Source: Octopus vulgaris (lineage: Eukaryota). Taken from it: a DNA stretch of 64,000 nucleotides. Location: positions 13,702,001 to 13,766,000 of the forward strand of contig OX597831.1 in NCBI GenBank assembly GCA_951406725.2, written 5' to 3'. The first letter of the stretch is position 1; each line of letters begins with the position of its first letter. Below are positions 9,120-63,364 of the stretch, piece after piece. Under the pieces are notes generated by a model. That model saw only the letters and a program-made list of their open reading frames with translations. It was not told the origin of the DNA and did no database searches. The position numbers and the translations under genes were made by a program.

Positions 9120-12100
9120 ATGAAATTTTTTCTACATATTCGTTTTCTCATTGTTCGTAAGTACTTAAACTCAAATGTTCTTCATCTTCGTAATATTCAG
9201 AGGATACCAGTTAATCTAACACACACACACATTCTCTCTTTCTTTTTCTCTCTATCTTTCTTACTATCTCCCTGCTCTCTCTCTATCTCTCCCTCCGTGT
9301 CCCTCTCTTGGTCTTTCTTCACTTTGTGTTGATATATATTTTTACGAATGTGAGTTAGATAAAAATCGCAGTACTTTCTCACTCAGTGTGTATGGGTGTG
9401 AGCCACCACACCGTTGCATACTTGACCCCACCTGAAGATGAATTTAATAGCTGGCAAATACTGTGTCAACTCTTTTTCAATTTGTGTCTTTTGAAAGAGG
9501 GCGATGGTATCGAGCGACTTCGAGTAGGTCCTTAACACCACCGTCCTCTCTTCAAAGTCTTTCATCCACTGTTTGCGTGGGACAATCTCCGACTCTAACC
9601 TAATGTTGTTTATCTTTTTTGCCATGTTTTTTTTTGGGGGGGTGGGGAGTTCACAAAATCAAAAGTTCACACAGTTAAAAAAAAAATTCAGGAAGGAAGA
9701 AGACAAAAAACAGTTAAAAAACACAGCAAACTATTCTTCTGGCTGTCCTGGTACTTCTGACTAGCACCCTTAAACACTTTAGTGACGTCCTGAATGGTAC
9801 TGCGCATGTGTCGAAACCATAATGATAGACGTGGTGCAGCAGATGATGGTGATATGTTGGATTGTTTTTATGGCGGTTCTGTATATCACATCATTTTGTT
9901 TCTATAAATATATATGTGTATATATATATATATATATATATATATATATATATATATATATATATATATATCCAACTATATATATACCCTCTATTTATAG
10001 AAACATATTTATAACTGCTTCATTCTGTGTTTCTGCCAGCACATCGGGTGGGATATCGATGTCCGCTCGCGCTTTTTCGGGAATTATCAATTTCACTGCC
10101 TGGGCTAGACGTATGGCTTTCTGTAGTACGTCCGTTCTAAATAGCGCTGAGGCATTCGCAGCAAAGGCTGTGAATGTATTGTTGTTATTGCTGCTGCTGC
10201 TGCTGCTGCTAAGTTTGTCATCGTTGTTGTTGTTGTTATTGTTACTCACAATAGAAATATTGCTGCCGTTTAAGTTGTTTTCGTTTCTTCTCTCTCATAT
10301 TTTGTTGTTGTAGTGTTAGTGTTCGATGCGAAGGCGCTTGGCTTAGTTGTTACAGCACTCGGCTCATGATCAAAAGGCCGTGATTTCGATTCTTGTGGGT
10401 GTGTTGTGATCTTGAACAACACACTACTCCAATCCTCTCATCTGGCATAAATGAGGGCTCCTTGTTATACAAAAGGCCAACCTTCTCACATTGAGTGCCT
10501 TGTGGAACAACTCTGAGAACTACGCTATGGATACGCATTTCGGTAGAGTGCTCAACCACTGATCAGATCAACAAGAAGCCTCGTCGTCATCACCAATGGA
10601 GTGCCAGCAAGATACCTTATTATTGTCAATCAGTTTTTCATTCGTTACCTCCATTCTTCTCTTTCAGTCGTTGGGCTGCAGACACTCTGGGGCGTCGTCA
10701 ACTCAAAGAGTAAGTAAATAATAACGATCTTCGCTACCTGTTTGAAAGTGTGTTGTTGTTCATCGAATACTATATGTAAATTATCTCTGTCATTTCTTGT
10801 ATATCACCCAGTGAAAACATGCCAGATTAACTTAGAAATACAACCATGAGTTTAGAAAATCGTCTGCTGATGGACTTCGACTTCGTATGTCACCTTATGA
10901 TTGCCTGGAGATTTATACCAACCATACAACCTTTTGTTAAACTGGTGTATTTGTCTCAGCAGACATTTTTCCCGGATTAATATTTTGATACATGACTATA
11001 CATATTTATATATGACTATATACATATATATATATATATATATATTAGAAATGGCAGCCAAATAGGTCACTATTTCTCCTACTAGTAAAAAAGGAAATAT
11101 TATATTGACAAGGAAATGAACCTCTGGTTCTAATCCAGAGACGATTTCGTCTATAATTAATCCAAATAGGCTGGGATTTCGTTATTTTCTTTCTCTTTAC
11201 CATATACGGGTTGCAAATTCTGTTTGTTTATGGAGACTTTTTTACTAGTAGGAGAAATGGTGACCTATTTGGCTGCCATTTCTAATATTTTCGGTATGTG
11301 GTTTTGTGCAACTTGTTGCAATTAACCCTTTATTATAATTAATATAATCCTTACCAAATATGGTATTTTCCATACCGATAAAACTACTAGGTGAAATTTA
11401 TTAATTTTATTAAATTAATTATATTTCACCCTTTTTTGTGTGTGTATATATATATATATATATATATATATATATATATATATATATGTAATACATATTT
11501 ACATAAATACATACATATGTATATACAAGCATATATATGTATATATGTATGCATGTATGTATGTATGTACGTATGTGCCGATTCTTTCTAGGTTTTATTT
11601 AATAATTTTTTCTATAATTGAATATTTTCATTTAAGTATATTTATACGCATAAGTACCATATATAGATTTAGGCTTTCAATTTTTGACAATTTTTGGTGC
11701 CTGTAATTGGCTACATTTGTTTCAATGATGCTCGTTGTGGAGTATGAACATTTTATGCTATGTTTGTTTGTTAGTTTGTAGTACTTGTGCATGGGGTGAA
11801 AGAGTTTTGACAGTGTTTTGAAAGCCTAATGTAGCTAATAGTGTAGAGACTTGTATGTTGCTAGGGAAAATTAAACCAAATGATTTTTTCTTGTTCTATT
11901 CTTACGTAGTTTATATTTTGTGGAGTTCTTTGTTTATATATTGCAACTTCTTGATGCATCCTTCCTATGGGCCTGCTGTGCCTAGTTTCATGTGCCAAGG
12001 AAAAGTAAATGCTCAGCTCATGCAAATTAATCTGTAAGTAATCTGAAACATTTCAAATTTCCATCGCTCTAACAACTCCATCAACCTACCGACCCCTATT

Positions 12101-61600: not shown

Positions 61601-63364
61601 AATCAACATTCAAATAAGCGATGGAATTTGTTCTACTCTAGGCACAAGGTACAGAATTTCTAGGGAGAGGGCAGTCGATTAGCTCGACCCAGTACACAAA
61701 TGGTACTTAATTTAACCGACTCCGAAATGATGAAAGGCAAAGTCGATACCGGCAGAATTTGAACTCAGGACATAACGGCAGACGAAATACCGCTGAGCAT
61801 TTTGCCCGGCGTGCTAACGATTCTGCCAGCTCGCCGCCCTTAATAAGCGATGGAATATAAATATCAGTACGCTAGTATTTAGTCATGACTGTTTACGTCG
61901 TTGTAATTTTGTATACCACCATGTTTCATTTATGGTTTAGTAAAGTAGATTACGAGAGCGTATAGCATGATCTAAGTCGAGAATTACATTATCAACGACT
62001 ATACTTAACTTGCAGGAATGTAAACTTACAATGTGACAGTAACCTCGATGACACTACAGAGTTACTCGTGTGTTTATTGCATGCTAAAATGCTCGACCAG
62101 GTTTAATAATTACGCGAAATATTAATTTTAACCCAATTAATCAGGTTCTCACATTTTTATTCCAGCTGTTCCTAAAAGTAAAATGTCAAGGAACCTTTCA
62201 GTCCACGTTATGTTTTCACACTGTGCCTTACTAATACTTATTCGGTGCACATTTTTGTGATGGAGGAATTAAATACCAAATACCAATATATTTGATGTAA
62301 GGACAGTTATTAAATATCACACATTTCATATTGATATTTTACTTTCACAATATTTTCAACTATTTTCCTTCGGTAGGAAATAAAAATGGCTGTTGAATTA
62401 TCTGACAGTATTAATCCGGTGATATAATAATACTAACACGAATATATCAAGAAATTGTCATAGGAATATCTCAATGATTATTATTTCCAACTAAAATCTC
62501 AATTCTCTGATGCATTAGCGAATCGTTAACAGAAAATATGCTACGTATGTTCATTATCCGTGACGATGCGGTTTCGATATAACTCTGGTGACACAGTGAT
62601 ATATCTGCATAACCCTTAATAGAAATGTATTTATACACTGTAGGCTAACGATATTATAAACAATGTCCTTAATCAGAAAATAATACTGTAATGTTGTTCT
62701 GATAGGACTGAATGTTACTAAAATATTAGCGTCCTGCCAGCGCAATATAACAATTACTGTATTTATTATGTGACTGTAACATCGATTATGCCAGTGTAAC
62801 ATCAGAGTAAAACTGTTGCATTATCTTTGGGAAGTCTATTGCCAATTTATCTTCGACATTTCAAGGAAATATCTAACATTTCAGTTTGCAAATTGGTGAA
62901 AGGTTGATTGATCCCTTAGCATATTTCTTTAGATTTTTCCTTTACACACCACCTCCAACAGTTTTGGAAGAGCGTTTGGGATTTGCTTTAGTTAGATCGC
63001 TTTAGATCACTTTAGATCACAGGTGACGAAGGGAAAATGGAGCTGTTTGTTAAGTATTGTTGTGAGAACCAGTACATGATAATAGAAGGGGCAGGTCTCG
63101 TTAAGCATATGTAAAATATCTGCTGGGGGATGCAAATCTCGAAACAAATAACAAATATGTAGCATTGAAACATGGCAGAGACTGATTGGTGGGAAGCTAG
63201 CGCGGTCGGCATGTCGCATAAACTAACGACAGACAATATTAAATTATCTACGAGCAACTCCATTTGTCTATTTTCATTCAAACATCTTTTCAATAGAAAT
63301 ATTTCAATAGCAGTTGTATTCTATTCTCATTGCAGTTAATATTCCATTCAGCACTTATTACTGA
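58624..63364 (+). CDS. Gene F: secreted six-cysteine peptide precursor, 97 aa, 5 exons
   Basis: Exons 58624-58657, 60285-60314, 60857-60959, 61340-61437, 63336-63364. [103 protein letters not shown] 63406-63411. Confidence 0.88.
58966..59262. mobile_element. Copy-specific insertion in (TA)n of gene F intron 1 with a ~140 bp hairpin
   Basis: aaatgaaagaatgtagtcgaacgac...cgaaacatgtttcg (from 59121) is inverted in cgaaacatgtgtcgag...ttcgactacattctttcattt (to 59261); absent from C, D, E. Confidence 0.6.

Follow-up and report, generated by a model that had tools for sequence, protein, structure and literature searches.

A tandem array of small six-cysteine protein genes in Octopus vulgaris, most with an exon for a predicted GPI-type tail

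What is encoded by a series of very short exons repeated along a 64-kb stretch of the Octopus vulgaris genome (the window), and would its products be released from the cell or held at its surface? A preliminary description of the window proposed five intact genes and one pseudogene for free secreted six-cysteine peptides, for example a salivary-gland toxin. Its account of a lineage-restricted tandem family, with six cysteines, entry into the secretory pathway and no named relatives, stood up to further analysis; the free secreted peptides did not, and turn on the identity of the last coding exon.

The window genes are real members of a tandem six-cysteine family. Six exon-1 sites occur on the + strand, belonging to five intact genes (W1 and W3–W6) and one broken copy (W2). 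In the intact genes, exon 1 starts at the ATG and contributes 34–37 nt, followed by exons of 30–42 nt (exon 2), 103 nt (exon 3) and 98 nt (exon 4), all with GT-AG sites and in phases 1,1,2,1. Exons 3 and 4 form the domain, with the cysteine spacing 5,19,8,8,13 in 5/5 genes, and each N-terminus has a Met-basic-hydrophobic pattern (best 11-residue Kyte-Doolittle mean 2.1–2.7) that is taken for a signal peptide on hydropathy alone. In all these respects, and in the conserved sequence motifs, the earlier description was accurate. The family reaches ~236 kb past the window, forming an array of ~290 kb with 19 loci, 17 of which retain both domain exons and 13 a tail exon; the encoded proteins are 102–142 aa long, with a median domain identity of 28% across the array. 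Chance is not a sufficient explanation for this family, because the three cysteines of each domain exon are invariant in 17/17 aligned rows, phases and exon order are identical at 17 loci, and orthologues exist in a second species. The array is mostly unannotated owing to its short exons. Broken copies within it are W2 and D12, and remnants lie at contig positions 13,802,466 and 14,008,845.

The genes also share a promoter-like motif, composed of an E-box-like hexamer, a CRE-like octamer and a TATA-like box, which lies at 9029–9060 (+) ahead of W1 and recurs in the window at 20830, 27022, 35951, 48551 and 58550. The pattern, which was derived from these same sites and is a putative promoter, has 17 matches in 464 kb, 16 of them just upstream of a family exon 1, and precedes 16 of the 19 array loci. 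The TATA reported earlier thus has a conserved place within a shared motif; a position of the box inside a 5′ UTR exon was considered and dropped on account of that fixed place.

W1 (+ strand) is composed of exon 1 (coding part 9120–9156, the start of the signal peptide, matching the N-terminus of the Octopus bimaculoides orthologue P0006), exon 2 (10668–10709, the remaining signal peptide), exon 3 (14625–14727, Cys 1–3), exon 4 (15103–15200, Cys 4–6) and a proximal exon 5, whose coding part (15658–15687) supplies a short polar end with its last 8 residues identical to the P0006 C-terminus. This proximal exon has a weak AAG acceptor and a conserved donor near 15790, and it completes a 102-aa protein with no hydrophobic tail. 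The W1 distal exon (16881–16960, +), which contains AATAAA, is likely a 3′ UTR exon 6 or an alternative end. W2 (20934–24571, +) retains exon 1 (20934–20970, with a GC donor), an out-of-phase exon 2 (21638–21690), an exon 3 truncated at ~22928 by a ~720-nt deletion in which exon 4 was lost too, a tail-exon remnant (23426–23598) and a distal exon at 24528. The remaining four genes, also on the + strand, have exons 1–4 at 27099–27132, 28958–28987, 30418–30520 and 30898–30995 (W3); 36027–36060, 41816–41845, 43138–43240 and 43621–43718 (W4); 48625–48658, 50579–50608, 52018–52120 and 52501–52598 (W5); and 58624–58657, 60285–60314, 60857–60959 and 61340–61437 (W6).

In these four genes a proximal exon ~727 nt past exon 4, homologous across the array, yields 119-aa proteins with a hydrophobic, GPI-signal-like tail. 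It occupies 31722–31816 in W3 (gene 27099–31816), 44444–44538 in W4 (gene 36027–44538), 53327–53421 in W5 (gene 48625–53421) and 62166–62260 in W6 (gene 58624–62260), with donors at 31852, 44574, 53457 and 62296, respectively. The preliminary description had instead taken as coding exon 5 a distal exon, found at 33056–33450 in W3 (two tandem copies, at 33056 and 33316, with AATAAA), at 45620 and 45880 in W4, at 55589 and 55849 in W5 and at 63336–63420 in W6 (with AATAAA). The AATAAA signals it noted do lie in the distal exon, its 95–97 aa products can be reproduced for W3–W6 by joining that exon, and the exon lengths account for its 102 aa for W1. The main product nevertheless probably does not use the distal exon as its coding exon 5, since the proximal exon intervenes and the O. 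bimaculoides models end there, an exon choice based on homology and on RefSeq models that are themselves predictions. The tail-exon donor lies 36 nt beyond the stop codon in 4/4 genes (W3–W6), so the distal exon can belong to the 3′ UTR. The reading frame of the distal exon varies in length between genes; it is open in phase 1 and begins with similar residues in several of them, so an isoform that skips the tail exon may exist, and a secreted product made by joining exon 4 to the distal exon is possible.

The tail exon, with a homologous acceptor, is present in W3–W6 and D1–D9, that is, in 4 of the 5 intact window genes and 13 of the 17 complete array loci, and it is this distribution that tells against free secreted peptides. 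A hydrophobic end (11-residue Kyte-Doolittle mean 2.4–3.7) occurs at 12 of the 13 tail-exon loci, D3 being weak at 1.3, whereas only 27 of 3,397 acceptor-like sites in 464 kb, the family's own included, would give such a tail. As judged by hydropathy alone, the C-termini of W3–W6 and of 8/9 of D1–D9 are of GPI type, with a polar spacer, small residues, a hydrophobic end and no cytosolic tail; an Arg lies within the hydrophobic tail of W3, W5 and W6. This C-terminus is absent in W1 and D13, and W1 in the window and D10, D11 and D13 outside it are predicted to be secreted. The family tree (21 rows; D12 and W2 omitted) needs three changes of tail label, but its starred branches are compatible with a single origin, so repeated loss does not follow from it.

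Expression and proteome data bear little on this choice. The RNA mapping suggested with the preliminary description found none of the predicted junctions bridged by a spliced read or a contig in 8 of the 24 listed runs, which carry no tissue labels, a result that is uninformative either way. Runs X1–X4 over 28880–33450 had cover on SINE/LINE sequence, low cover at ~32290–33070 and none on exons 2–4; runs X12, X16, X19 and X21 over 60150–63520 had no exon joint, with faint cover in X16 and X19 on the exon 3/4 bins that seemingly continues into the intron. One tailed member was sought by its UniProt entry, which is missing among the listed protein groups of an O. vulgaris posterior salivary gland proteome, and motif searches in two proteome supplements, one consisting mostly of identifiers with few peptide sequences, found 0 matches among the listed entries.

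Relatives were found in Octopus only. Four O. bimaculoides RefSeq genes encode six related proteins that all end in the proximal exon, two of the genes with a hydrophobic tail and two without. LOC128249871, LOC128249908, LOC106874739 and LOC128249878 share 80%, 86%, 84% and 66% domain identity with W1, D13, D7 and D6, respectively, have the same exon ends as the array and lie on one 55.6 Mb contig; they are automatic models, uncharacterized, unnamed and with no Pfam domain, and are uncited in the literature searched (the LOC128249871 and LOC128249878 accessions fell outside that search). The tail loss of W1 and D13 is common to O. bimaculoides, and no annotated orthologue of W3–W6 was found among its models. 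A profile search of 1.84 billion representatives returned three matches, two octopus relatives and P0007, a repeat-like protein judged spurious. Homologue and Pfam searches with single exons returned nothing, PDB sequence searches nothing meaningful, and the ESM Atlas no usable match (best 0.80, the chance level). These sequence comparisons support a lineage-restricted family that belongs to no named family, in agreement with the earlier proposal.

The six-cysteine domain is predicted to be all-helical, its AlphaFold2 model containing helices only (pLDDT 85.6). The N-terminal domain of repulsive guidance molecules (RGM-N), named as the lead before being tested, is weakly indicated by sequence and model as the closest known match. 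Pfam RGM_N (PF06535) was the sole Pfam match of P0006 (16.1 bits, E 0.014, cut-off 24.2) and matched none of the five other full-length relatives (P0001–P0005); the genome's own RGM-N, a true RGM-N gene on another contig, scores 41.1 bits. Foldseek placed RGM-N, with RGMB at the head, as the top 7 of 350,542 chains, all non-significant (E 2.2–3.7, TM 0.36–0.45), and VIA gave Z 4.3–4.4 with rmsd 3.3–4.1 over 56–61 residues, values tied by unrelated helical proteins. The hhalign probability against RGM-N was 0.8%, and a model that retained the signal peptide drew no clear match in a fold search. In the opposite direction, the family HMM scored 11.6 bits on octopus RGM-N, which was reached by 1/2000 full shuffles and 79/2000 shuffles with fixed cysteines. 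The octopus RGM-N spacing is 4,22,8,7,21, of which 8,7 recurs in D1–D8. RGMs are GPI-anchored, bind BMP via a three-helix, three-disulfide N-domain in which RGMB contributes the contact residues Arg100, Gly101 and His106, and include a C-terminal Neogenin-binding domain (PMC7354924). W1 and its orthologue retain the Leu and Tyr that follow Cys5 in RGMB, and in a comparison with the RGD/RGN-Leu linker and the His used for BMP contact, Leu and an aromatic residue were kept in W1, P0006 and D13, while the RGMB Arg, Gly and His were not. The Neogenin-binding domain is absent from the family, exon 4 running straight to the tail or stop, and the family members are not RGMs.

The domain exons show excess divergence. 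In W3–W6, the mean pairwise difference of exon 3 is 0.206 vs 0.068 for introns (~3×), and the highest 103-nt intron window (0.141) remains below the exon 3 mean. Amino acid changes affect 22 of the 33 exon 3 codons, with one codon synonymous-only, and the excess is limited to the mature-domain exons, the tail exon showing no increase. Synonymous divergence in exons 3–4 is also raised (dN/dS 1.0–1.5 in six non-independent pairs) and the introns are mosaic, so some of the contrast may reflect gene conversion acting to homogenise the introns, with no need for positive selection.

With slightly better than an even chance of being right, the family can be read as lineage-restricted, variable cell-surface recognition ligands, mostly GPI-anchored and with a few secreted members. 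The shared promoter motif would drive the genes in one cell type; the signal peptide would direct the products to the ER, where three disulfides would clamp a helical bundle, perhaps descended from an RGM-N-like ancestor, a step held to be marginally more probable than its converse. The hydrophobic tail would then be exchanged for a GPI anchor, which is quite probable for W3–W6, and the variable face, formed perhaps by the exon-3 loop and helix, may bind a rapidly changing partner carried by another cell, a gamete or a microbe, with the tail-less W1, D10, D11 and D13 acting as soluble versions or decoys. Reproductive and epithelial or immune roles are about equally likely, and neural or BMP signalling somewhat less so.

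The resemblance to RGM-N could instead be functional, with stand-alone GPI-anchored domains tuning BMP/GDF signals as co-receptors and secreted members antagonising them. The anchoring and BMP binding of RGMs, the recurring 8,7 spacing, the retained Leu/Tyr and the family HMM score are consistent with this proposal, but the loss of the three RGMB contact residues, the missing C-terminal domain and the true RGM-N gene elsewhere weigh against it, fast amino acid turnover would be ill-suited to a conserved ligand, and it is thought improbable. An equally low probability is given to secreted effectors or venoms, released through exon 4–distal exon joining or by shedding of the anchor, whose free domain would act on prey or microbes. 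Signal peptides, fixed cysteines, tandem arrays and exons that diverge faster than introns are typical of toxins, the domains of W1 and W6 are cationic (+6 and +9), and four members are tail-less, two of them in both species; yet the tail exon is kept at most complete loci, including the youngest and fastest-changing W3–W6, the tailed member sought among the listed salivary gland protein groups is missing, and no toxin family was matched in Pfam or the PDB. A venom role for most members is therefore unlikely. It is likewise improbable that the array is simply under relaxed birth and death, with W3–W6 as redundant copies or copies in decay and with gene conversion behind the contrast between exons and introns. 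The broken copies and remnants, dN/dS near 1, mosaic introns and Arg in three tails would fit such decay, but W3–W6 keep their frames, six cysteines, splice sites and promoter motif in 4/4 cases despite the turnover in exon 3, and the excess divergence is confined to the mature-domain exons. An extension of the cell-surface ligand reading, put forward as a doubtful but not negligible idea, is that octopuses have built, from a stand-alone RGM-N-like helical domain, a co-regulated identity code of 19 genes at the cell surface, in which exon 3 supplies a hypervariable face and some products are secreted decoys. Introns would be homogenised while the exon-3 face is kept apart, and the anchor exon would be repeatedly lost or skipped, in the service of gamete, self/non-self or neural recognition.

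Descriptions of cell-surface protein families specific to cephalopods are few in the literature searched. The compact array, its single promoter-like motif and the strong amino acid turnover of one exon make these genes candidates for recognition between gametes, in immunity or in cell identity, and a likely mis-call as venom peptides is corrected. If the RGM-N link is true, a conserved signalling domain would have found new use as a diversified module, and the switches from anchored to secreted forms would parallel those of the Ly6 family.

Among known systems, RGM-N (PF06535; PDB 4uhz, 6z3j, 6z3m) resembles the octopus domain in its ~65–70 residues, six cysteines in similar order, predicted helical bundle and flanking signal peptide and GPI-type tail, with weak sequence and fold matches. 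Unlike in RGM, the octopus domain stands alone in proteins of 102–142 aa, lacks the BMP-contact Arg/Gly/His and separates Cys5 from Cys6 by 11–13 residues instead of 21, and it is encoded by 19 fast-evolving tandem copies in place of one conserved gene. Neuritin/CPG15 (PF15056) and DUF19 (PF01579) are small, Cys-clamped helical proteins, GPI-anchored or secreted, and share the architecture of a signal peptide, a single six-Cys helical domain and a GPI signal; their models matched no family member, nor the array in a genome search in which exon-split genes lower sensitivity. The Ly6/uPAR proteins, with their ten-Cys, beta-sheet three-finger domain, are structurally unrelated to the octopus domain, and the likeness is one of life history: clusters of small disulfide-rich genes encode GPI-anchored and secreted proteins in fast-evolving recognition, and secreted offshoots gave rise to snake toxins.

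Exons 1–4 of the six-cysteine genes lie at the places implied by the preliminary description; in all five intact genes they are bounded by GT-AG sites and follow phases 1,1,2,1, and the proposed cysteine spacing of 5, 19, 8, 8 and 13 residues is borne out in each. The octopus gene family is real, and largely unannotated. W2, previously called a pseudogene, is indeed broken, with an out-of-phase exon 2 of 53 nt and a deletion of ∼720 nt that takes the end of exon 3 and the whole of exon 4. W2–W6 are ∼90–97% alike across kilobases and are recent segmental copies. Putative LINE remnants occur in a minus-strand reverse-transcriptase stretch within W1 intron 2 (window 12400–13720), in a ∼1.1 kb reverse-transcriptase fragment directly 3′ of the W5 tail exon (53510–54620), and in a short 3′ piece at the corresponding place in W3 (31900–32080); W2, W4 and W6 have none at that place. 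A short stretch at 2226–2265 weakly resembles exon 2 in translation (E 0.8), and no further exon was found nearby.

The 3′ ends of the genes were reconsidered after a full-length Octopus bimaculoides relative (P0002) was found to terminate in a long hydrophobic tail, which prompted a search for phase-1 exons 3′ of exon 4. W3–W6 each contain one, 726–729 nt after exon 4 and starting at window positions 31722, 44444, 53327 and 62166, respectively. This tail exon encodes 31 residues, in which a polar spacer is followed by small residues, a hydrophobic end and a stop, and completes proteins of 119 aa. A DNA profile detected homologous exons in W1, W2 and the downstream loci D1–D9; among the 13 tailed genes that are intact, 12 have the hydrophobic end (highest 11-residue mean 2.4–3.7), and it is weak in D3, at 1.3. 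Across 464 kb, 27 of 3,397 acceptor-like sites yield a comparable tail, the family's own included. W3–W6 are accordingly placed among candidate GPI-anchored proteins by prediction, with an Arg inside three of the four hydrophobic tails. The distal exon originally taken as coding exon 5 gives precursors of 97, 97, 95 and 97 aa for W3–W6, as reported, but is probably not the main coding end. Since a donor lies 36 nt past the tail-exon stop in W3–W6, the distal exon, which bears AATAAA and a reading frame of variable length, is best taken for exon 6, in the 3′ UTR. Predicted RefSeq models of all four O. bimaculoides genes likewise terminate in the nearer exon, two with a hydrophobic tail (LOC106874739 and LOC128249878) and two without (LOC128249908 and LOC128249871); no orthologue of W3–W6 was found among annotated O. 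bimaculoides genes. Exon 4 and the distal exon are in frame with each other, and a transcript that skips the tail exon could encode secreted forms. W3–W5 have two tandem copies of the distal exon, spaced by 260 nt (33056/33316, 45620/45880 and 55589/55849), which offers alternative 3′ ends; within the window, the first type alone is kept in W6 and the second alone in W2.

W1 and its orthologue LOC128249871 (P0006) are identical at 80 of 101 aligned positions, four junction X being scored as mismatches. The W1 nearer-exon acceptor is AAG, and because the last eight residues of the tail-less orthologue match the frame at window 15658–15687, W1 is predicted to be secreted in both species. Both proteins terminate in Gly there, a possible amidation signal, and the W1 stop lies ∼100 nt 5′ of the conserved donor.

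Splice-aware scans over 464 kb, which joined to the window 100 kb on its upstream and 300 kb on its downstream side, located 19 loci (W1–W6 in the window, D1–D13 beyond it) on both strands with exon 1 at 13.711–14.002 Mb, 17 of them retaining both domain exons (3 and 4), as well as two remnants besides these 19; no domain exon was found in the 100 kb upstream flank. Three single queries of the 2.80 Gb genome gave credible matches in the array only (at least 7 of 7, at least 16 of 16 and at least 10 of 14 matches, the other four having E 0.5–3.5), and the only relatives found were O. bimaculoides proteins, at up to 80–86% identity. Domain identity ranges from 16% to 86% with a median of 28% (21 rows), which makes the array an old one with young bursts. 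Upstream of exon 1, 16 of the 19 genes carry a promoter-like motif that combines an E-box-like hexamer, a CRE-like octamer and a TATA-like box; the pattern, built from these same sites, has a single stray match across the 464 kb, and from this motif we infer that the genes are co-regulated. D10, D11 and the inverted D12 (L024–L029; contig 13,929,000–13,986,000) have near-identical promoters and distal exons and a strongly diverged exon 4; D12 no longer has a start codon, and no exon 3 turned up for it. D13 (L030), on the minus strand at contig position 13,991,668, has a nearer exon that has turned into a Pro/Lys/Thr repeat and lacks a hydrophobic end; the version in the O. bimaculoides orthologue is shorter.

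No exon joints were found in contigs from eight runs without tissue labels. Low-depth, near-identical contigs from four putative RNA runs in three studies, chosen for containing words of this sequence, cover window 32288–33070 between the W3 tail and distal exons without reaching its coding exons, and are possibly a long 3′ UTR or another transcript. The literature covered, which took in passages of PMC7354924, PMC7693380, PMC9068888, PMC7656900, PMC4280546 and bioRxiv 10.64898/2026.04.09.716377, parts of the supplements to PMC7693380 and PMC10138644, and a search by accession for two O. bimaculoides genes out of the four, yielded no description of the family, though coleoid venom-gland papers, the 2015 genome paper and other supplements may mention members.

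Among W3–W6, exon 3 shows a mean pairwise difference of 0.206, exon 4 one of 0.117 and the tail exon one of 0.039, vs. 0.068 in introns, where 103-nt windows reach at most 0.141. Variable columns number 37/103 in exon 3 vs. 167/1,327 in introns (p 8e-9) and 20/98 in exon 4 (p 0.04). Amino acid changes affect 22 of 33 exon 3 codons and silent-only change one, with Cys, Trp and Pro unchanged. Over the non-independent pairs, dN exceeds intron divergence 1.4–3.7-fold, while dN/dS is only 1.0–1.5 because exon dS is elevated as well. All 10 informative exon 3 sites pair W3 with W5 and W4 with W6, whereas intron sites are mixed. This pattern is in keeping with an exon 3 under diversifying or balancing selection and introns undergoing conversion; gene conversion alone may lie behind the contrast, and relaxation of the array is improbable. 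We somewhat favor a model in which the small proteins would be made together and lose their signal peptide, the mature domain folding into a disulfide-clamped helical bundle; tailed members would receive a GPI anchor and show the variable exon 3 face to a fast-changing partner, and those without tail would be soluble counterparts. The earlier proposal of free secreted peptides probably does not extend to most members, predicted by the tail exon to be at the cell surface. That the family comprises secreted effectors or venom is accordingly doubtful, and more plausible for W1 alone; in the portion covered of a salivary-gland proteome from O. vulgaris, a control identifier was present and the UniProt identifier of one tailed member was absent.

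An AlphaFold2 model of the W1-orthologue domain, from a 35-row alignment of mostly single-exon fragments, has pLDDT 85.6 and helices at 5–9, 16–21, 31–48, 51–63 and 65–68. Its likeness to RGM proteins' N-terminal domain had been suspected before testing. The sole Pfam match of P0006 is RGM_N (E 0.014; 16.1 bits, below the cut-off of 24.2), and five other relatives have no RGM_N match. Foldseek against 350,542 chains placed RGMB-N as the top seven at E 2.2–3.7 (TM 0.36–0.45). VIA-align gave RGM-N Z 4.3–4.4 (rmsd 3.3–4.1 across 56–61 residues), which puts it at rank 20–21 among 48,161, level with unrelated helical proteins. The family HMM scored 11.6 bits on the genome's own RGM-N, reached by 1/2000 shuffles and 79/2000 Cys-fixed shuffles, and hhalign of family vs. 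RGM-N gave a probability of 0.8%; all of these tests draw on shared sequence signal and are non-independent. Taken together, they make an RGM-N-like scaffold slightly the better bet. The genome's canonical RGM N-domain (L048; C2:46,683,999–46,684,205) does not have the RGD/RGN and His residues found in vertebrate RGMs. The family is not an RGM, and a role as BMP modulators is unlikely: among the BMP-contact residues of RGMB given in PMC7354924, Leu103 is matched by a counterpart in W1, P0006 and D13, whereas Arg100, Gly101 and His106 are not.
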